From assembly GCF_002854065.1 (NCBI RefSeq), contig NZ_CP024147.1: 64,000 nt of DNA; one strand, given 5' to 3'. Positions 15,908-50,739 of the stretch are shown one piece after another. Origin of the DNA: Escherichia coli (GTDB lineage: Bacteria; Pseudomonadota; Gammaproteobacteria; Enterobacterales; Enterobacteriaceae). The notes below the pieces were generated by a model, which searched no databases, had not been told where the DNA came from, and was given only the letters and a program-made list of their open reading frames with translations. The stretch's first letter is position 1. Each line of letters begins with the position of its first letter. Both the position numbers and the translations under genes were made by a program.

Positions 15908-16816
15908 TTATTCTTCGCGAATGCCGGAAAGTTCTGCACGGGAGAGCACCAGACGGGCGCGATCGATAACCGGACCGTCCACCATCTTGCCGTTCAGGGA
16001 AACCACGCCGAGGCCTTCGCGAGCGGCGGCTTCAGCGGCTTCTACGACGCGGCGGGCGTGATCCACTTCTTTCTGGGGCGGTGCGTAGAGGTTGTGCAGC
16101 AGATCAATCTGACGCGGGTTGATCAGCGATTTGCCGTCAAAGCCCAGCTGTTTGATGTGGGCGGCTTCTTGCAGGAATCCGGCTTCGTTGTTAGCGTCGG
16201 AATAGACGGTATCGAACGCCTGAATACCCGCAGAGCGCGCGGCCTGCAAAATGGAACAGCGTGCGAACAGCAGTTCAGTTCCTTCCGGGGAGCGTTCTGT
16301 ACGCAGGTTGCGCACATAGTCTTCTGCACCGAGGGCGATACCGATCAAACGCTCGGAAGCGTGAGCGATTTCCACTGCGCGGGTAATGCCCAGCGGAGAT
16401 TCAATCGCTGCCAGCAGGCCGGTGCTGCCGGGTTCACGACCACAGGCTTTTTCGATGCGCAGGATCTCTTTTTCGATATCCAGAACATCCTGAGCGGTAT
16501 CGGTTTTCGGCAGACGCACAACGTCCGCACCACCGCGAACGACGGCTTCCAGGTCGTTAACACCCCATTCGGAATCCAGCGCGTTGACACGCACAATGGT
16601 TTCAATATCGCGATACAGCGGATGTTGCAGCGCGTGATAAACCATGCGGCGGGCGGTGTCTTTTTCACGTAATGCCACGGAGTCTTCGAGGTCAAACATC
16701 AGGGCATCTGCCGGGTAGATGAAGGAGTTGCTGACCATCGCGGCATTGGCACCAGGCACAAACAACATGCTGCGGCGGGTGCGAGTTTTACGTTGTTGCA
16801 GCGAAGCGGAAATCAT
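15908..16816 (-). CDS. citE: Citrate lyase beta subunit (citryl-CoA lyase)
   Basis: ORF 15908..16831; start set at [10 protein letters not shown] for 302 aa; ATGA overlap with the citD stop. Confidence 0.93.
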
Positions 16817-17109
16817 TGGCAATCCTCCCATGGCAGAGCCGGGATACCGCTGGCGCGTGCCAGCAGGGCTTCCAGTCGTGCACGTAAAATGCAGTCCAGT
16901 GCGCCTTTGTCATCGACATTCAGCTGTACGCCGCGCACGTTGTAGCGGGCGAGAACGTCCAGAATGGTGGTGCGAATTGCATCGCCAAACTGTTTCTCAA
17001 CGCTGCTATTGATTTGCAGGTCGATATCCTGCGTATCGAGTGGGGCGATGCGTATCATCACATCCCCAGACTCAAGGGTGCCTGCAACGGCGGGCTGGTT
17101 TATTTTCAT
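16813..17109 (-). CDS. citD: Citrate lyase acyl carrier protein (gamma subunit)
   Basis: 98-aa ORF. Confidence 0.93.
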
Positions 17110-41109: not shown

Positions 41110-41344
41110 GGCAGCCAGTGGTCCTGTTTTCATTACGGCTACAAAAGTAGCGTTAGAGGTGGTTTTTCAGATCCGCATAGCATAGCCCAAACGTCCGCGT
41201 CAAAACAGCCTTTCGCGCACTCGACGTTGAAATGATGCCCGGATTATTCATACATTAATTTACAGAGTTTGTGGGCGTATTAGCAAAGCAAGGAACAAAG
41301 AACGTCTATTATTATAGTCAGTTAACGACCCGGGAGATGAAACG

Positions 41345-41827
41345 ATGAACAAGGTTGCTCAATATTACCGTGAACTGGTTGCGTCACTGAGCGAACGCCT
41401 GCGCAATGGCGAACGTGATATCGACGCACTGGTGGAACAGGCGCGCGAGCGCGTAATAAAAACAGGGGAGTTAACGCGAACCGAGGTCGATGAGCTGACG
41501 CGAGCTGTCAGACGTGACCTGGAAGAGTTCGCCATGAGCTATGAAGAGAGCCTGAAAGAAGAATCTGACAGCGTCTTTATGCGGGTGATTAAAGAAAGCT
41601 TGTGGCAGGAGCTGGCAGACATCACCGATAAAACGCAGCTTGAATGGCGCGAAGTTTTCCAGGACCTCAATCATCATGGGGTTTATCACAGCGGAGAAGT
41701 GGTCGGGCTGGGAAATCTGGTCTGCGAGAAATGTCACTTCCATCTCCCGATCTACACACCGGAAGTGCTGACGCTATGCCCGAAATGTGGTCATGACCAG
41801 TTCCAGAGACGCCCGTTTGAGCCGTAA
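41345..41827 (+). CDS. ybeL: Zinc-ribbon-containing protein (DUF1451 family)
   Basis: 160-aa ORF with a C-terminal CxxC...CxxC motif. Confidence 0.9.
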   Translation: MNKVAQYYRELVASLSERLRNGERDIDALVEQARERVIKTGELTRTEVDELTRAVRRDLEEFAMSYEESLKEESDSVFMRVIKESLWQELADITDKTQLEWREVFQDLNHHGVYHSGEVVGLGNLVCEKCHFHLPIYTPEVLTLCPKCGHDQFQRRPFEP

Positions 41828-41896
41828 TAGTCTGATTTCGCACAGCAATAAAGAGAATATGGGCCGAATGAAATTCCCCGGCCCTTGTTTTTATCT

Positions 41897-42874
41897 CTAC
41901 AGTAAATCTTCAGTCTCACGAATTTCCTGACTGACATCTCTGGTTCCGGATGACTGAACTTTACGATACAGGTCGAGAGCCTGTCGGAGATCGACAGGTC
42001 TTCCTTCTCCGTAGTGATACATAATGGCCAGGTTATACCAGGCAGTGGCGTCATTGCATTCAGCGGCTTTCGTAAACCATTCAAAGGCAGCCTGATAATC
42101 TTTCTCAACGCCTTGTCCGTGTTTATACATATAACCGATGTTGACGTAAGCGCCGACGCTCCCCTGAGCGGCAGCCTTCAGATACCAGTACATCGCTTGC
42201 TTATAGTCCTGGTCCACCCCTTCGCCAGCGTTATAATCCCATGCAATTTGAAACTGAGCATGCCGATTACCCTGCTGTGCGCTTTTCAAATACCAGAATG
42301 CGGCGAGTGTCTCGTTTTGAGCAACGCCTTTTCCGTCTTCATAAAGATCGGCCAGATTGTTTTGCGCGTCACTATGGCCTTGTAATGCAGCTTGTTTGTA
42401 CCAGAAAAATGCCAGCGTATAGTCTTGTGCGACTCCGTTGCCATTTCTGTACATCCACCCAAGATTATTTTGCGCATAAGACATTCCGCTCTCCGCGGCT
42501 ATCTGATACCAGGCAACCGCTTCTTTATAGTTGGGGTCTTCTCCACGATCCAGTATCCAGCCAAGGGCGTTGGAAGCGAAAGTATGGCCTTGTAGGGCAG
42601 CTTTTTTCAGCCAGAAGATGGCTTGCTCATTATCTTTATGACGGCTTTTATCCTCGGTATACTTTTGCCCTAAGGAATACTGTGCTTCACAATGACCTTG
42701 CTCAGCGGCCAGCTTCAGCCAGTAAAAGGCCTTTTCGTCGTCCGGAGAGTCAATTGCGCTATCGCGATTATAATAAAACCCAACAATATATTGAGCCTCA
42801 CTATCGCCTTGTTCAGCACGTTCGATAATCTCATCTATTGACAAATTATCGCAGCAACTTGACGTAAAAATCAT
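41897..42874 (-). CDS. ybeQ: Sel1-repeat (TPR-like) protein
   Basis: ORF 41897..42880; start taken at the second ATG (MIFTSSCCD) for 325 aa, though the ATG at 42880 is also possible; multiple Sel1-type repeats. Confidence 0.85.
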   Translation of the reverse strand: MIFTSSCCDNLSIDEIIERAEQGDSEAQYIVGFYYNRDSAIDSPDDEKAFYWLKLAAEQGHCEAQYSLGQKYTEDKSRHKDNEQAIFWLKKAALQGHTFASNALGWILDRGEDPNYKEAVAWYQIAAESGMSYAQNNLGWMYRNGNGVAQDYTLAFFWYKQAALQGHSDAQNNLADLYEDGKGVAQNETLAAFWYLKSAQQGNRHAQFQIAWDYNAGEGVDQDYKQAMYWYLKAAAQGSVGAYVNIGYMYKHGQGVEKDYQAAFEWFTKAAECNDATAWYNLAIMYHYGEGRPVDLRQALDLYRKVQSSGTRDVSQEIRETEDLL

Positions 42875-43037
42875 TATCATTTCCTTATGGTTGCAGATAA
42901 AAGATATTATATTTTTATGTGTTCCGTTTTTGCGTAAGTCTTATTTTATGCGTATTATGTTGTGTCGGAAAAGTATAAATAAATGAGCCTCGTAATGTAG
43001 TTTACATTCATTAAATGAATGTTTAAGGATAAATTAT

Positions 43038-43745
43038 ATGGACATAGAGTCGCAAAAAATATTGTTTGCACTTTCCACTCCGATGGAAATACGCAATGAA
43101 TGCTGTTTACCTTCGCATTCATCCCCCAAAATGTATTTAGGTACATGCTTTTTTGACCTTTCTTCCTCCTGGGGAATTGATGACCGTGATGACCTGCTGC
43201 GCACAATTCACCGAATGATCGATAACGGTCATGCCGCGCGGTTGGCAGGGTTTTATCACCGCTGGTTTCGTTATTCTCCATGTGAATGGCGTGACTATCT
43301 TGCTGAATTAAATGAGCAAGGTCAGGCTTATGCGCAATTTGTCGCCAGCACAGCCGAATGCTGTGGTGAGGGAGGAATTAAAGCATGGGATTATGTCCGG
43401 ATGGGTTTTTTAAGTCGAATGGGCGTACTTAATAACTGGTTGAGTGAAGAAGAAAGTCTATGGATCCAGTCGCGTATTCATCTACGGGCTCTACGTTATT
43501 ATAGTAACTGGCGGCAATACTTTGCCGGTTATACCTTTGGTCGGCAATATTGGCAGTCTCCCGAAGATGATAATCTGCCTTTATTACGTGAATTCTTAGC
43601 GCGTAAAGAATACGACGATTCCGGCAATGATATGTTTTATCAATTATTTGCCAGTGATGATGCGTATTACCCTACCTTGTCCTGGCAACCATTGGCTTAC
43701 TATTCTGCATGCCCGGAAACGCTTAAGGATATGAGCGACCTATGA
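43038..43745 (+). CDS. ybeR: DUF1266-like protein, paralog of YbeU
   Basis: 235-aa ORF sharing long identical blocks with YbeU (for example [20 protein letters not shown]). Confidence 0.9.
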
Positions 43746-45169
43746 AAAATTGCTGGAAGATCCTCGAAATAGAGGAAACGACTGACGTCGATATTATCCG
43801 CCGCGCTTATCTGGCGCTGTTACCGTCCTTTCATCCAGAAACCGATCCGCAGGGTTTTAAACAACTTCGTCAGGCGTATGAGGAGGCGCTACGGATTGCG
43901 CAGTCGCCTGCTAAATCTGTTTGGCAACCAGAAGAATATGAGGTAGCAGAACATGAAATTCTGCTCGCCTTTCGTGCGTTACTTGCCTCTGATAGCGAAC
44001 GTTTTCTGCCCTCCGCCTGGCAGCGATTCATTCAGCAATTAAATTATTGCTCGATGGAAGAGATTGATGAATTACGCTGGTCGCTGTGCACAATCGCCAT
44101 GAACACTGCCCATTTATCCTTCGAGTGCGTGGTGTTATTAGCAGAAAGATTGCGGTGGTTGCAGGAGGAAAACGTCGGGGAAATAGACGAAGAAGAACTG
44201 GAATCCTTTTTATATGCCATTGCGAAGGGGAATGTTTTTAACTTCCAGACCATTCTGCATCTGCCCGTTGCCGTGCAAAATGACACCATCGATTTTTACC
44301 AAATGTTCGCTCGGATTTGGTCATCGCATCCAGAATGGCTGACATTGTATTTAGCGCAACATCGCGCAGTGATTATCCCCGATGATGCAAAACTGCACAG
44401 AAATTTACTCCGCTGGTATAGCGCAGGTCGCCTGGGAATTCCCGAACTCCTGGATTACGCCCGGTCGTGGCGGGAAGCTGAACCTGATAATGAAGATGCG
44501 CGTTATTATGAATACGCGCAACGCGTCTATTGTGGAGAAGGCGAAAGCCTGCTGGCAGAACTTTGTGACTACTGGCACGAGTATCCCTCCACTCAGGCGG
44601 ATGCTTTAATGTTGCAATGGTGCCGTCAGCATCGAGTCGATTATTACCCATTAGTGGTGATGATGATTGAAGCTCGCGAACTGGTTAACGACCAGGGAAA
44701 ACCGCTACTTTATGTCCCCGGCGACAGCGCCCGTACGCGTTTTCATTTATACGAAATACTCAGCGATGAAAAACTCTCTGCGCTGGGGCGTTCACTGGTC
44801 GAGATGGTTTTGCACAAAGGACGTAAGCCGCGGATCTCACTCAAGCGTGATACAGAACATACCTTATGGCCATTATATCTAGTTGCCAAACAATTAGTGC
44901 AGGCCAGCCAACCTACAGAAGAATCATTAATGCCGATTGTAAGCCGTCTTGATGCAGAAGATCGTTGTCCACTGGAAGCATTAATTATTCGTCGATTATT
45001 AATTCAGGCGGCGAATTTTACCGAGAAGCAGACTGTTGAACCGGAGCCGCAACCGCAGCCAATGCCCGTTGCCGATGGTGGGCCAGGCTGTCTGGGCATC
45101 ATTAAAATTATTTTCTATATTTTTATCTTTGCTGGTTTGATAGGGAAAATACTCCATCTGTTCGGGTGA
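43742..45169 (+). CDS. djlB: J-domain-like co-chaperone with C-terminal membrane anchor, paralog of DjlC
   Basis: 475-aa ORF with an N-terminal J-like domain, a Pro/Glu-rich linker and a C-terminal hydrophobic helix; ATGA overlap with the ybeR stop. Confidence 0.9.
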
Positions 45170-45178
45170 CAGTCGACG

Positions 45179-45733
45179 TTAATGTGCGGGAAGCCCGGCA
45201 AGTAATCTTTCCGCATTTTTGTAATGTTGTTTGGCGGCCAGTTTTAACCATTTTTGAGATTCATAATGGTTAACATTAATACCTGAGCCATTTCTGTAGA
45301 TCAAACCTAAAGTATATTGAGCATGAGCATACCCTTGTTCAGCTGCTTCCTTATACCAGAGAATTGCTTTACGGGTGTCGGGTTTGACCCCCAGACCTTT
45401 GAGGTAGATCCACCCCAGTTTACTTTGCGCGCGTGGATTTTCCTGTTCCGCTGATTGCTCATACCAGTATCTCGCCTGTGTATAATCCAGTGGTTTACCG
45501 TCGCTACCATGAAGATAAAATTCTCCAAGGCGATATTGCGACGTTGAGTGACCATGAATCGCGGAAAGCTCCGTGGCTGCCGTGGTGAATGGAAGACTGC
45601 CCGGTGAGCTTAAATAATCAAAGGCATAATTCACCATGGCTTTATCACGCAACGTCGTTTTCTTGGGTTGGCTAATACAGGTAATTGCTGCAACTATAAA
45701 AATTGCGAATATATACATTAATTTTTTATTCAT
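45179..45733 (-). CDS. ybeT: Sel1-repeat protein with signal peptide
   Basis: 184-aa ORF with an N-terminal hydrophobic segment and Sel1-type repeats. Confidence 0.9.
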
Positions 45734-45834
45734 GTGTGAATGCTTCGATTTTCTTTTTATTTTGAAAGCGTCAAGTTTATACTCATCAATAATAAAAAAG
45801 TAGTCAGTTAATGCACTTAAGGGATTATTAACAA

Positions 45835-46542
45835 ATGAATAAGGAAGAACAATATTTTCTTTTTGCGCTTTCTGCGCCCATGGAAATACTTAATCAGGGT
45901 TGCAAACCCGCGCATGACTCGCCAAAAATGTATACCGGGATAAAAGAATTCGATCTCTCATCATCCTGGGGAATAAATAATCGTGATGATTTAATTCAGA
46001 CTATTTATCAGATGACTGATGATGGTCATGCTAATGATTTAGCTGGCTTATATCTGACATGGCATCGCTCTTCCCCTGAAGAGTGGAAAGCATTAATTGC
46101 TGGTGGCTCGGAGAGAGGGTTGATTTATACCCAATTCGTTGCCCAAACCGCTATGTGCTGTGGAGAAGGGGGAATCAAAGCTTGGGATTATGTTCGAATG
46201 GGGTTTCTGTCACGGGTCGGTGTGCTCAACAAGTGGCTGACGGAAGACGAGAGTTTATGGCTGCAATCGCGCGTCTATGTACGAGCTCACCATTACTATC
46301 ACAGCTGGATGCACTATTTTTCTGCCTATTCACTAGGGCGTCTCTACTGGCAATCTTCTCAGTGCGAAGACAACACTTCGCTACGCGAGGCGCTAACCCT
46401 GTACAAATACGATAGCGCCGGGAGTCGTATGTTCGAAGAACTGGCAGCGGGAAGCGATCGTTTCTATGCCACGCTTCCCTGGCAGCCATTAACTGTCCAG
46501 CCTGAATGCCCGGTAACGCTTAAGGATGTGAGCGACCTATGA
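45835..46542 (+). CDS. ybeU: DUF1266-like protein, paralog of YbeR
   Basis: 235-aa ORF. Confidence 0.9.
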
Positions 46543-47990
46543 AAACATGTTGGCAAATCCTCGAAATTGAAAGCACGACGCAAATAGACATTATCCGCCA
46601 GGCTTATCTTGCTCGCTTACCGTTATGTCATCCCGAAACCGATCCGCAGGGGTTTAAAGCATTACGCCAGGCCTATGAAGAGGCCCTGCGACTGGCGGTA
46701 AATCCTGTCGAGGAAGCAGATGATGAAGAAAAAGATGCCGCCGCTGAACATGAAATACTACGTGCATTCAGGACATTACTGGATTCAGAAAGTGATCGTT
46801 TTCAGCCTTCCGCCTGGCAGAAATTTATTCAGCAATTAAATACCTGGAACATGGAGGATGTCGATCAATTACGCTGGCCGCTGTGTGCAATCGCTATAGA
46901 AGCGCGATATCTTTCATTAAATTGTGCTTCTTTGCTGGCAGAGCGTTTGAACTGGCATTCGTTTAATGACAGCGAAGGAATAGATGAGGAAGAAAGGGAG
47001 GCTTTTCTTGAGGCCATTCAGGCTGGTGATTGTTTCGATTTCCTTAGCCTTCTGGAATATCCCATTGCGTTGCAGAACCAGACTGTTGAATATTACTTCG
47101 CGCTGGAACGTTGCTGTCGTTACCATCCTGACTATGTCACTGCGTTTTTGGCGATGGCAGGTCCGTGGTTAATTCCTGATGATGCGAAGTTGCATCGCAA
47201 ACTGTTGCGCTGGTACTGCTCGGTGCAAACAGGTATGGCGGAACTCATTCCTGTTGCCCAACAGTGGCAAACGGAAGAACCAGAAAGCGAAGATGCCCGG
47301 TATTACCAGTGTGCACAACGTTTGTACTGCGGCGAGGGGGAAAGCCTGCTTGCCGATCTCTGCGCGTACTGGGGAAGTTACCCATCTACACAAGCCGATA
47401 ATTTGTTGTTGCAGTGGAGCGCACAACATTGCCCGGATTATTTCGCGTTATTAGTGATGGTTATCGAAGCGCGGAGCATGGTAGATGCGCAAGGTAAACC
47501 GTTGAAATATGTTCCTGGTGAGAGCGCCCGGACGCGTCTGTTATGGGCGGAAATTTTACATAGCGGAAAACTATCGCCGTTAGGTCAATCGTTTATTGAG
47601 TCGCTATTCTTCAAACGCAAAGCATGGGCGTGGTGGAAATCGAGAGTCGGTAGCGAGACAGAAGAAGATTCACCGTTACTGGATTTGTATCGGGTAGCGG
47701 AACAGGTAGTACTTGAAGCGTTTCCGAAACAAGAGATGCTGGCCCGTCTTAATACAAGGCTGGAAGGCGGAGATGCTCATCCATTAGAGGCCATTATCAC
47801 CCGGATGCTGTTGACGAAAGTAAAACTCGAGCCGGAGGATGAAGATGTCGATGAGCCAACACCTGAAAACCATGAAGAAAAAAATGATGAGGATGAAAAA
47901 CCACAGAGCATTACCAGCATTATCAAAATCAGCTTAACGGTGCTGGTGATAGGTTATGCTCTCGGCAAAATCGCGATGTTGTTTAGTTGA
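46539..47990 (+). CDS. djlC: J-domain-like co-chaperone of HscC with C-terminal membrane anchor
   Basis: 483-aa ORF; ATGA overlap with the ybeU stop; acidic linker and C-terminal hydrophobic helix. Confidence 0.9.
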
Positions 47991-48010
47991 CGATGTGTTT
48001 TTTGCGCCGA

Positions 48011-48041
48011 TGCCGGATGCAGCATTTACGCCGCATCCGGC
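48011..48041. repeat. REP-like palindromic element between djlC and hscC
   Basis: TGCCGGATGC...GCATCCGGCA inverted repeat. Confidence 0.55.
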
Positions 48042-48049
48042 AGCCGTGA

Positions 48050-49720
48050 TTATGGGATCTCAATGGCTAAATAAACGCTCGCCCGCCGCCTGACCTCATC
48101 GACGCGGGCCATATCGTTTGACTGCAGCGCCGCATCAAAATCGGTGATCACCCGGCCAATCTCTTCTCGCTCGTCACCCAGCGCCCGCGCCCACAACTCT
48201 TCCAGTTTGGCTTTAAAGGTACGATTGATGAGCATATCGCGCGGATAAATTTTCAATGCGGATAACCGCGTCCGACTCTCTTCAATCTGCTGCGCGCTCA
48301 ATGTTACCGGGCTGTGGTTAATCACTCTGGACTTAACGCTGCCGTCTTCCAGAAGCACGTCAACTTCAAGCAAGCCGTTGATATCATAACTAAAGCGAAT
48401 ATCAATCGACTGATAAGCTCCGGTTTTCTTCAACGGCACATCGAAGGATTCCACCAGAATGTTATTTTTAACTTTGTGGTTTTCTCCCTGATAGACGTTA
48501 ACCGTAATAGAATCCTGTTCCGGGTGCATGGTCGAGTAAGTTTCTACACGCGACACCGGTACTGTGGTGTTTCGTTCAATAATCGGCGAGAAAATGCCGG
48601 AAACGCCCTGGCGGTTAACTTCAACGCCCAACGAGTAAGGGCAAATATCAGTGAGGATCACTTCTTCAATATCTTCACTGCGTAAGCGGCAGGCGGCCTG
48701 GATTGCTGCGCCCAGCGCGACAATGGTGCTCGGATCGTAACTTTGATACGGTAATTTGCCAAACAGACGCACGGCGATTCGCTGCACCAGCGGCATTTGT
48801 GACGCGCCGCCAACCAGCACCAGACTGTCGATCTGACTCGGCTTCAGACGCGCATCGCGCAATGCCTGTTCAATCGGCACTCGCAAGCGGTTAAGCAGAG
48901 GCAACCACAAATCTTCCAGTTCGTTCTCGTAAAATTCGCACTCCAGCGTTTCTTCCTGGTACTGCCAGCGAATGTGCATTGGCAATTGATTGCTACATTT
49001 TGCCGCTTCCACACAGGCGTACAGGGCAGCCAGTTCGCTCTCGTTAAGGGCTGTTTTGGCGACTTCCGCGCGTTTTAAAACTTCATCGACCAGCATATGA
49101 GTAAAATCTTCGCCACCGAGGAAGTTATCGCCCGCTGAGGCGTGAACTTCAATCACCGGCGTGGCGTACTCAAGCACCGTAACGTCAAACGTGCCGCCAC
49201 CGAGATCAAATACCAGCGAGCGGGTGTTTTGTTGGGTATGCAGGCCATACGCCATCGCAGCTGCCGTTGGCTCATTAATCAGGCGAACTGCATTTAAACC
49301 GGCTAACTCCGCTGCTAAACGGGTATGCTTGCGTTGTTCATCGCTGAAATAAGCCGGAACAGAGATCACCACATCTTTAATCGGACGTTGCAGAAATTCT
49401 TCGGCATCTTCTTTTAATGAACGTAATACCAAAGAGGACAGTTCTGGCGCGTTAAATGTGTCGCTGCCTAACCGCCAGTTGGTATTACTGCCCATTGCAC
49501 GTTTAAATAACGCTGCCGTTTTATCCGGATGCGAAGTACGCCGTGATACAGCCGGTTTTCCGACTAAAATATGATTATTTTCATCCATGCTAATTATGGA
49601 TGGTGTTAAATATTCACCGAACTTATTTGGAATTAATTGCGCGGCACCGTCTTTCCAGACGGCAATTAAACTATTGGTAGTACCGAGATCGATACCAATG
49701 GCGAGTTCTGCATTATCCAT
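48050..49720 (-). CDS. hscC: Hsp70-family chaperone HscC (Hsc62)
   Basis: 556-aa ORF with the Hsp70 N-terminal ATPase signature IGIDLGTTNS. Confidence 0.95.
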   Translation of the reverse strand: MDNAELAIGIDLGTTNSLIAVWKDGAAQLIPNKFGEYLTPSIISMDENNHILVGKPAVSRRTSHPDKTAALFKRAMGSNTNWRLGSDTFNAPELSSLVLRSLKEDAEEFLQRPIKDVVISVPAYFSDEQRKHTRLAAELAGLNAVRLINEPTAAAMAYGLHTQQNTRSLVFDLGGGTFDVTVLEYATPVIEVHASAGDNFLGGEDFTHMLVDEVLKRAEVAKTALNESELAALYACVEAAKCSNQLPMHIRWQYQEETLECEFYENELEDLWLPLLNRLRVPIEQALRDARLKPSQIDSLVLVGGASQMPLVQRIAVRLFGKLPYQSYDPSTIVALGAAIQAACRLRSEDIEEVILTDICPYSLGVEVNRQGVSGIFSPIIERNTTVPVSRVETYSTMHPEQDSITVNVYQGENHKVKNNILVESFDVPLKKTGAYQSIDIRFSYDINGLLEVDVLLEDGSVKSRVINHSPVTLSAQQIEESRTRLSALKIYPRDMLINRTFKAKLEELWARALGDEREEIGRVITDFDAALQSNDMARVDEVRRRASVYLAIEIP

Positions 49721-49803
49721 TGCATTTATATCTTGAAAGAAAAAGAGATAAACAGATTAAGACCACCCAGGTAACGCGTGGTGATCTTAATCAATGACGT
49801 GTG

Positions 49804-50739
49804 TTAAGCGTAAAATTTCAGACGATCGGCCAGTAAATCAACAAAGCTCTGACGATCAACATCGACCATTACAGTGGCATTCGGTTTATTGCCAGTCAGA
49901 TAATAATAATCAACAACCGTCATCCCCTGGGTATATTTCCCCTGTGTTTCCACGCCAACCCAGCGCTCAACAGTGGTAAACAACTCGGGTTTCAACAGCC
50001 AGGCGATGGTGCATGGGTCATGCAGCGGTGCGCCGACAAAGCCCCATTTTTCGTCTTTATGATATTCGAGGAAGAAATCCAGCAGTTCGGCAACAATGGT
50101 TGAAACAGGGTTGCCAATCGCGCGGAAACGCTCGGTGTCCTCACCGTGAATTTGTGCTTTGTGAGTAACATCCAGACCGGCCATCACCACCGGGATCCCT
50201 GACTGGAAGACAATTTCTGCCGCTTCCGGGTCAACGTAAATATTAAATTCAGCCGCAGGCGTCCAGTTACCCAGCCCCATAGCGCCACCCATAATCACGA
50301 TACGGGCAATTTTGCTATGCAGTTCCGGATGGCTATTGAGCAGCAAGGCAACGTTAGTTTGCGGTCCGGTAGAAACAATGGTGACAGGTTCCGCACTTTC
50401 ACGCAGCGTTTTCGCCATTAGCTCTACCGCCGTACAGTTTTGCGGTGCGAACGCCGGTTCCGGTAATGCCGGGCCGTCGAGACCGCTTTCGCCGTGCACA
50501 TTGTCCGCGATAATCAACTCACGCATTAACGGTTTTACCGCGCCGCCTGCTACCGGAATATCGGTGCGATTAAGCAAGGTCAGCATACGCAGAACATTGC
50601 GTAAGGTTTTTTCTGGTGTCTGGTTTCCGGCGGAAGACGTAATTGCTTTGACATCAAGCTCTGGTGAGGCGAGGGCGAGAACTATTGCGATAGCGTCGTC
50701 ATGACCTGGGTCGCAATCTAACAGAATTGGCAGTGCCAT
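49804..50739 (-). CDS. rihA: Pyrimidine-specific ribonucleoside hydrolase
   Basis: ORF 49804..50772; start set at [18 protein letters not shown] (nucleoside-hydrolase DxDxxxDD motif) for 311 aa. Confidence 0.92.

Follow-up and report, generated by a model that had tools for sequence, protein, structure and literature searches.

A conserved triad of DUF1266 protein, membrane J-protein and HscC, and the two-gene duplication within it in Escherichia coli

The window analysed here, a stretch of 64,000 nucleotides of the Escherichia coli contig NZ_CP024147.1 (assembly GCF_002854065.1), contains at positions 41,897 to 49,720 a chromosomal block of seven genes in the order ybeQ(-) ybeR(+) djlB(+) ybeT(-) ybeU(+) djlC(+) hscC(-), encoding the specialised Hsp70 HscC, the J-proteins DjlB and DjlC, the DUF1266 proteins YbeR and YbeU and the Sel1-repeat proteins YbeQ and YbeT. 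An earlier note, made from the sequence of the window, had described this block as a tandemly duplicated module of three genes (Sel1-repeat protein, DUF1266 protein, J-protein) next to hscC. We consider it very likely that the unit of duplication comprised two genes, those for the DUF1266 protein and the J-protein, and that DUF1266 protein, J-protein and HscC form a triad conserved across Gammaproteobacteria. The locus itself is the already known HscC-DjlB/DjlC system of E. coli; a description of its link to DUF1266 was not found. On balance, synteny, translational coupling and one structure prediction favour the view that the block may be the E. coli form of a conserved three-part membrane Hsp70 machine, in which HscC is combined with a DUF1266 protein and with a membrane J-protein bearing the HPE motif.

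Using YbeU as a query, 366 relatives with a DUF1266 domain were obtained from 1.84 billion representative proteins. An alignment of 24 DUF1266 sequences contained no block conserved enough for a scan pattern; genomes, one per species, were scanned with one peptide pattern from nine sequences, which yielded 74 loci, from Escherichia, Klebsiella spallanzanii, Rahnella, Erwinia, Pectobacterium, Pseudomonas (about 45), Gilliamella (about 17), Marinobacter, Bowmanella and one genome of the Cellvibrionaceae. Nearly all loci with enough contig showed the gene for the DUF1266 protein, then that for the J-protein, then hscC. The three genes were also adjacent in metagenomic and other assemblies, where relatives with 22–41% identity in the DUF1266 protein were accompanied by a homologue of DjlB and DjlC (Pfam PF27158) together with an HscC-type Hsp70 that is 555–567 amino acids long. 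Two distant lineages had the order Hsp70, J-protein, DUF1266 protein on one strand, with overlapping or nearly abutting genes and with Pfam TPR repeats in the J-protein. Clustering of the neighbouring open reading frames (ORFs) showed that just these three families cross genera, in 81, 80 and 79 loci, and no fourth gene conserved across genera; the HscC-type Hsp70 adjoined the pair of the other two genes in 81 loci. The flanks of the triad differed between genera and were stable within a genus. The genes for DUF1266 protein and J-protein overlapped by 4 nucleotides in 78 of 86 gene pairs, by 1 nucleotide in four and by 10 nucleotides in two. Synteny outside the lineage, on which the earlier note had let its view depend, thus holds strongly for DUF1266 protein, J-protein and HscC, and in nearly every one of about 80 loci, a marine bacterium being among their sources, the DUF1266 protein is the third component beside the other two, which is a useful addition to the known system.

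The J-proteins are of two sizes. Outside the group of Escherichia, Salmonella and Klebsiella they have about 890–920 amino acids, of which the first 360 or so align with residues 1–353 of DjlC at 31% identity, and a C-terminus with two or three transmembrane segments, for which a DUF805-like membrane match was obtained in the Erwinia homologue. The enterobacterial proteins have 472–495 amino acids and a single terminal transmembrane segment. Among 18 J-protein ORFs inspected, 16 contained the HPE motif and 17 had C-terminal transmembrane segments; the two ORFs without HPE were one from Marinobacter with an over-extended start and one from Cellvibrionaceae. The Pfam DnaJ model matched DjlC with E = 0.036 and the Erwinia homologue with E = 1.6e-5. 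HPE is the one tolerated variant of the HPD motif and is functional in DjlB and DjlC (PMC13254874). Both proteins have the appearance of tail-anchored proteins, with one C-terminal hydrophobic segment (residues 449–467 of 475 in DjlB, 458–476 of 483 in DjlC) and no N-terminal signal; the linkers which had been noted before these anchors, Pro-rich in DjlB and acidic in DjlC, were found as described. The tail anchor of DjlC and its insertion into membranes have been demonstrated experimentally (Peschke 2018, as reported in PMC8215388). The body of DjlC appears to be TPR-like, and a search of the PDB with its sequence gave no relatives. The best NCBIfam matches of HscC were below threshold, with 388 bits to DnaK (cut-off 648) and 380 bits to HscA (cut-off 709), and the protein is an HscC-type Hsp70, neither DnaK nor HscA. 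As related in PMC8215388, Kluck et al. (2002) found that the ATPase of HscC is stimulated by DjlC, whereas none of DnaJ, CbpA and HscB has this effect; for DjlB, stimulation of HscC is an assumption of PMC8215388.

Alignments at the DNA and protein levels showed that the DUF1266 and J-protein genes of the two halves of the block are homologous, as had been claimed from shared peptides. YbeR and YbeU are 59% identical over 235 of 235 amino acids without a gap (E = 1e-103), and DjlB and DjlC 51% from end to end (E = 1e-164); the longest peptide block identical between the copies has 20 amino acids. DNA identities are 62% for ybeR/ybeU and 57% for djlB/djlC, and third codon positions are 41% and 37% identical, respectively, with longest exact runs of 13–17 nucleotides. 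With third codon positions close to saturation and no exact run longer than 17 nucleotides, the duplication is old, and recent gene conversion between the copies, which was considered as well, is rejected; the identical peptide blocks therefore reflect selection at the level of the protein. In Salmonella enterica and Citrobacter amalonaticus, the same site between ybeL and rihA carries a YbeQ-like gene (-), DUF1266 gene, J-protein gene, a spacer of 12 bp, DUF1266 gene, J-protein gene and hscC (-), and no gene, ybeT included, is located between the two pairs. Neighbour-joining trees of the two families were congruent: YbeU and DjlC clustered with the second copy of Salmonella and Citrobacter (bootstrap values 75 and 53), and the first copy of these genera with the single-copy proteins of Pseudocitrobacter, a metagenomic enterobacterium and Klebsiella spallanzanii (bootstrap values 84–97). 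These groupings, together with the layouts in Salmonella and Citrobacter, indicate that the pair was duplicated as one unit before the split of Escherichia, Salmonella and Citrobacter. The genes for DUF1266 protein and J-protein are each closest to their other copy and co-duplicated in relatives, which is not the case for the Sel1 genes; the suggestion that a membrane-tethered co-chaperone cassette serving HscC was duplicated long ago is therefore supported for the two-gene pair, by synteny and by the published action of DjlC on the HscC ATPase, and has to be given up for a module of three.

A third, divergent gene for a J-protein with HPE motif was observed in Escherichia sp. MOD1-EC7003 between ybeL and ybeQ (L010:3648-5003). 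It is split into parts of 93 and 344 amino acids, has a J-domain 47% identical to that of DjlB and a hydrophobic C-terminus, is not accompanied by a separate DUF1266 gene, and resembles an extra paralogue in decay.

The idea that a Sel1 gene belonged to the duplicated unit, and that both Sel1 proteins are integral subunits, finds support in gene positions, as each Sel1 gene does lie upstream of a DUF1266 gene and divergent from it, as the strands of the ORFs confirm. This position is kept by YbeQ orthologues in four genera, with 50–53% identity in Salmonella, Citrobacter and Pseudocitrobacter, and the orthologues are limited to this group together with Escherichia; ybeT was seen, among the loci examined, in Escherichia alone, and the pair is duplicated in Salmonella and Citrobacter without a second Sel1 gene. 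Nor do the two proteins resemble copies of each other: their lengths and predicted locations are different, and they are mutually no closer than to unrelated Sel1 proteins. YbeQ and YbeT align repeat on repeat only (32–37% identity), and with the same program YbeT scored 138 bits against YbeQ, but 235, 217 and 182 bits against Sel1 proteins of solved structure that are unrelated to it; tandem Sel1 repeats as such are detectable by sequence, as the matches of YbeT to solved Sel1 proteins ranged from 66 to 235 bits. Both proteins matched Sel1 models of the MerG, MotX, ExoR and AlgK type, always below the family cut-offs. YbeT is hydrophobic at residues 5–23 on the Kyte-Doolittle scale and YbeQ has no hydrophobic N-terminus, so that the two are probably located in different compartments. 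Other lineages fuse TPR to the J-protein or to DUF1266, and a module of the TPR or Sel1 type may thus recur as a partner; yet clustering of the neighbours revealed no Sel1 gene with the triad outside Enterobacteriaceae, and Klebsiella spallanzanii possesses the cassette at the same site as E. coli, also without a Sel1 gene. Taken as a whole, the model of a three-gene unit appears very improbable, and ybeT is an insertion between the pairs, found only in Escherichia and outside the duplication. Among Sel1-like repeat proteins, EsiB (c5321), HcpC and Sel1L/Hrd3 are, like YbeQ and YbeT, built of Sel1 repeats. Sel1L/Hrd3 cooperate at a membrane with quality control that depends on Hsp70; a contact of YbeQ or YbeT with HscC would be hypothetical, and YbeT differs further in that its predicted export would take it away from the machine in the cytoplasm.

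What the DUF1266 protein contributes is less easily decided. YbeU matches DUF1266 (Pfam PF06889) over its full length (E = 6.3e-45, positions 2–175 of the 175 of the model), no fold relative of DUF1266 was detected in the PDB, and the literature yielded no study of its function, the term being found just in a paper on the H-NS transcriptome (PMC7582179). Trp, Arg, Asp, Glu and His are frequent among the conserved residues, which are W45, R50, H65, W117, D118, R121, R127, E139, W158, Y161, W172 and W216. For a prediction of contact with the J-protein, 20 cognate pairs of DUF1266 protein and J-protein were joined by (G4S)6 in a paired alignment and YbeU-(G4S)6-DjlC(1-450) was modelled with AlphaFold. 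The predicted template modelling score (pTM) was 0.77, compared with a value of about 0.55 that, by our own estimate and not from a control, would be expected for random placement of bodies of 235 and about 430 residues. The mean predicted local distance difference test (pLDDT) value was 84 despite 67 disordered residues, and residues 190–215 of YbeU rose from pLDDT 74–78, when modelled alone, to 89–91 in the fusion. The model gives indirect support for a physical complex of DUF1266 protein and J-protein, which appears probable.

Together with the published step, the arrangement suggests how such a machine could work. The J-protein would be held in the inner membrane by its C-terminal segment or segments, with J-domain and TPR-like body in the cytoplasm, and the J-domain would trigger ATP hydrolysis specifically in HscC, as known from the literature for DjlC. 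Translational coupling through the overlap of stop and start codons could keep the production of DUF1266 protein and J-protein at a fixed ratio. The DUF1266 protein would dock on the TPR-like body of the J-protein as a client-selecting subunit and would thereby limit HscC to few clients at the membrane. In Escherichia, Salmonella and Citrobacter, the J-protein may have been cut from about 900 amino acids with two or three transmembrane segments to about 480 with one tail anchor; a tandem duplication of the pair before these genera diverged would then have provided two adaptor sets per HscC. The cytoplasmic Sel1 protein YbeQ may have been added upstream, and the exported YbeT may have been gained later in Escherichia, between the pairs. 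We propose, at somewhat less than even confidence, that DUF1266 is an obligate, stoichiometric subunit of the HscC machine whose fold has no counterpart in the PDB, and that it docks on the TPR-like body and picks the client, the duplicated pairs representing two client specificities and YbeQ an additional, lineage-specific adaptor. The narrower statement that DUF1266 is the client selector, and neither client nor regulator, is made still more tentatively.

Several points weigh against this proposal. DUF1266 could be a client or a regulator instead of an adaptor. The scan of genomes with one pattern is a sample and not a census, and with a single peptide pattern the frequency of HscC-type Hsp70s lacking DUF1266 cannot be derived. 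The placement of E. coli YbeR and DjlB in the trees was poorly supported (bootstrap values 17–38). Outside Proteobacteria, DUF1266 occurs fused to apparently extracytoplasmic modules, and the domain is therefore not always tied to an Hsp70; in other phyla, the fusion partner was Cu_amine_oxidN1 in 8 of 35, TPR in 4–5 of 35 and SLH in 2 of 35, besides other modules. Finally, the pTM of 0.77 was obtained for a single, linker-fused chain with only 20 paired sequences, no negative control and no predicted aligned error.

Some of these points bear on a different role, in which DUF1266 would be a dedicated client or regulated cargo, which J-protein and HscC fold, hold inactive, deliver or remove at the membrane, while its conserved polar and aromatic residues would serve an activity of its own. 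The residue set from W45 to W216 could form an active or binding site, the occurrence of DUF1266 in other phyla without a J-protein and fused to modules of cell-surface type suggests a function of its own, and tight translational coupling fits a chaperone and its client as well as an adaptor. We regard this role as rather unlikely beside that of a client-selecting subunit.

Within E. coli the block is variable. The region 41300–50000 is 100% identical to that of E. coli strain CUWW06 and 95–99% identical to that of nearly all other complete E. coli genomes. Among 5426 complete genomes, hscC (coverage of at least 80%) was present in 4376, ybeT-ybeU-djlC in 4258, ybeQ-ybeR-djlB in 3712 and the whole block in 3698, from which it follows that the island is accessory and inherited largely together with hscC. 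About 19% of the complete genomes lack the block, and about 1000 have ybeL directly beside rihA, with a REP-like spacer of 44 bp. The empty site of E. coli GMF054 (L003:3529-3572) consists of a spacer of 44 bp between ybeL and rihA with a REP-like hairpin, GCCGGATG...CATCCGGC; this spacer matches neither the one between ybeL and ybeQ nor the one between hscC and rihA of the window, so that simple excision leaving a scar does not account for the empty site. Partial losses were encountered in E. coli 81009 (L004:2098-2563), where ybeR-djlB is lost and only a remnant of ybeQ is left, and in E. coli EC0026B (L005:5846-7296), which has a frameshifted djlB/djlC recombinant and a deletion of ybeT-ybeU. 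GC content drops to 0.38–0.43 at both divergent intergenic regions; a promoter and terminator scan of the block gave fewer sites than shuffled sequence and was uninformative. H-NS binds ybeT and ybeU-djlC, which are induced 4.1-fold and 2.8-fold, respectively, by over-expression of SlyA (PMC5797941), and in strain 042 at 25 °C an hns mutation de-repressed a DUF1266 gene 308-fold (PMC7582179). In exponential growth, HscC, DjlB and DjlC were below proteomic detection (PMC8215388).

An accessory block of this kind, with empty sites in about 19% of genomes, losses of single pairs and one djlB/djlC recombinant, could also be thought of as a conflict system, directed against phages or other bacteria, in which HscC, J-protein and DUF1266 protein would detect an invader at the membrane or render it harmless and the duplicated pairs and Sel1 proteins would be diversified sensors. 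Low GC content at the divergent promoters, silencing by H-NS and activation by SlyA are as in horizontally acquired genes; 50,697 phage records, however, are essentially devoid of the cassette, and, misfiled chromosomal records of E. coli aside, it was found on plasmids of Erwinia persicina only. In one related locus, of a metagenomic enterobacterium, the block includes a gene for an Rpn nuclease and a toxin-antitoxin pair of the RelE type; a Tae4 gene is found close to one distant locus, and genes for Imm35 and DUF7674 close to another. Within Pseudomonas and within Gilliamella, unlike in defence islands, most loci have the same housekeeping flanks. In PADLOC none of the seven proteins matched beyond noise: with PADLOC-DB v2 the Sel1 proteins gave repeat-level noise to PtuA (E = 6e-4 and 2e-3, with no stretch passing), and DUF1266 proteins, J-proteins and HscC gave no match. 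Scans with PADLOC and NCBIfam of the seven proteins and of three neighbours from related loci revealed nothing specific. Apart from Kluck 2002 and Peschke 2018, the literature on HscC with phage or defence, on the old gene names and on DUF1266 contained no study of function, and the reported phenotypes are sensitivity to Cd2+, of hscC and of djlB djlC mutants, and to UV, of hscC mutants (PMC8215388). A function in conflict is thus judged improbable.

Carriage by mobile elements was also considered and rejected, as the phage matches were two unannotated fragments of 1.5–2.6 kb and the "plasmid" matches of E. coli were mostly chromosomal in size or content. In Erwinia persicina, copies of DUF1266 are present on four plasmids of 130–165 kb (H47-H50), the sole plasmid-borne case found.

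The system formed by HscC (Hsc62), DjlC (Hsc56/YbeV) and DjlB (YbeS) has been described as the third Hsp70 system of E. coli (Kluck et al. 2002, as reported in PMC8215388), and the present locus agrees with that account in genes, J-domains with HPE, tail anchors and the paralogy of about 50% between DjlB and DjlC. Reviews of 2021 (PMC8215388) and 2026 (PMC13254874) present it in two parts, Hsp70 and J-protein, with no mention of YbeR, YbeU, YbeQ or YbeT; here, DUF1266 is added as a third. A similar case is the HscA-HscB system for Fe-S clusters, also a specialised Hsp70 with an exclusive J-protein, encoded together with a client or adaptor (IscU) and without a requirement for GrpE. HscB, however, is soluble and has a canonical HPD motif, whereas the partner of HscC is anchored in the membrane; HscC itself stays below the HscA cut-off, as given above, and the candidate for its third partner is DUF1266. 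Eukaryotic J-proteins with TPR (DNAJC3/p58IPK, DNAJC7) and membrane J-proteins (Sec63, Pam18/Tim14) show no sequence relationship, the likeness being one of working and not of family. In comparison with these, the DjlB/DjlC type has an N-terminal J-domain, a C-terminal tail anchor or DUF805-like anchor, and both Hsp70 and J-domain on the cytoplasmic side.

The features of the block are compiled in Table 1. Layout, coordinates and strands of the seven genes agreed exactly with those given previously, as did the ATGA overlaps between DUF1266 and J-protein genes; both ybeR and ybeU terminate in ...CTATGA, in which the ATG of the J-protein gene is embedded. The gene names match RefSeq records of E. 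coli.

Table 1. Genes and sequence features of the ybeQ-hscC block (positions of the window)
Feature	Positions	Strand	Description and basis
ybeQ	41897-42880	-	Sel1-repeat protein of 327 aa, cytoplasmic; gene divergent from ybeR; ORF and Sel1-type matches, without hydrophobic segment
ybeQ/ybeR divergent intergenic region	42881-43037		AT-rich; GC down to 0.41-0.43
ybeR	43038-43745	+	DUF1266 protein, copy 1, 235 aa; 59% identity to YbeU; in DUF1266 alignments
ybeR stop/djlB start ATGA overlap	43742-43745	+	Read directly in the sequence
djlB	43742-45169	+	J-protein, copy 1, 475 aa: HPE J-domain (FHPETDPQG), helical body, Pro-rich linker, tail anchor
DjlB C-terminal transmembrane anchor (aa 449-467)	45086-45142	+	Kyte-Doolittle score 2.39
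ybeT	45179-45733	-	Short Sel1-repeat protein, 184 aa, N-terminal signal or anchor; ORF
YbeT N-terminal hydrophobic segment (aa 5-23)	45665-45721	-	Signal peptide or membrane anchor; Kyte-Doolittle score 2.0
ybeU	45835-46542	+	DUF1266 protein, copy 2, 235 aa
ybeU stop/djlC start ATGA overlap	46539-46542	+	Read directly in the sequence
djlC	46539-47990	+	J-protein, copy 2, 483 aa: HPE J-domain, TPR-like helical solenoid, acidic linker, tail anchor
DjlC C-terminal transmembrane anchor (aa 458-476)	47910-47966	+	Kyte-Doolittle score 1.85
hscC	48050-49720	-	Specialised Hsp70, 556 aa, convergent with djlC; ORF

The block is bordered by leuS-ybeL on one side and by rihA-gltLKJ on the other. The gene ybeL (window positions 41345-41827), which encodes a zinc-ribbon protein of the DUF1451 family, was the constant left border in every enterobacterial locus examined, including those without the island. 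Some related loci contained further genes. A protein of 412 or 419 amino acids is encoded directly beside hscC in Salmonella (L084:13250-14488, -) and in L002:15147-16406 (-); the two are 64% identical, had no match in Pfam, PADLOC or NCBIfam, and have no counterpart in the E. coli window. In Citrobacter (L085:5077-6021) and Pseudocitrobacter (L001:7180-8136), the interval from ybeL to the ybeQ-like gene encodes proteins of 314 and 318 amino acids with an N-terminal signal-like segment, 54% identical and without a family match. In the metagenomic enterobacterium, an Rpn-type (Transposase_31) gene and a helix-turn-helix/RelE pair (L002:11739-12659 and 16430-17033) are located in or beside the cassette, and the Sel1 gene is fragmented. 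The end of a contig assigned to "Paenibacillus sp. USDA918EY" (L014) was 99% identical to E. coli ybeU, most likely due to contamination of the assembly.

Of the three bacterial types of Hsp70, HscC is understood least, and the reviews consulted, up to 2026, name just DjlB and DjlC as its partners and no client. The weak phenotypes of hscC mutants in K-12 could perhaps be explained by silencing through H-NS and by expression below proteomic detection. The corrected anatomy of the block, with a duplication of two genes, a later ybeT and a YbeQ limited to one lineage, should spare effort on a three-gene module which does not exist. If it is true that DUF1266 is the constant third subunit, YbeU and YbeR would be the obvious baits for the client, and the "third Hsp70 system" described in 2002 would become a three-part machine with a handle for its client.

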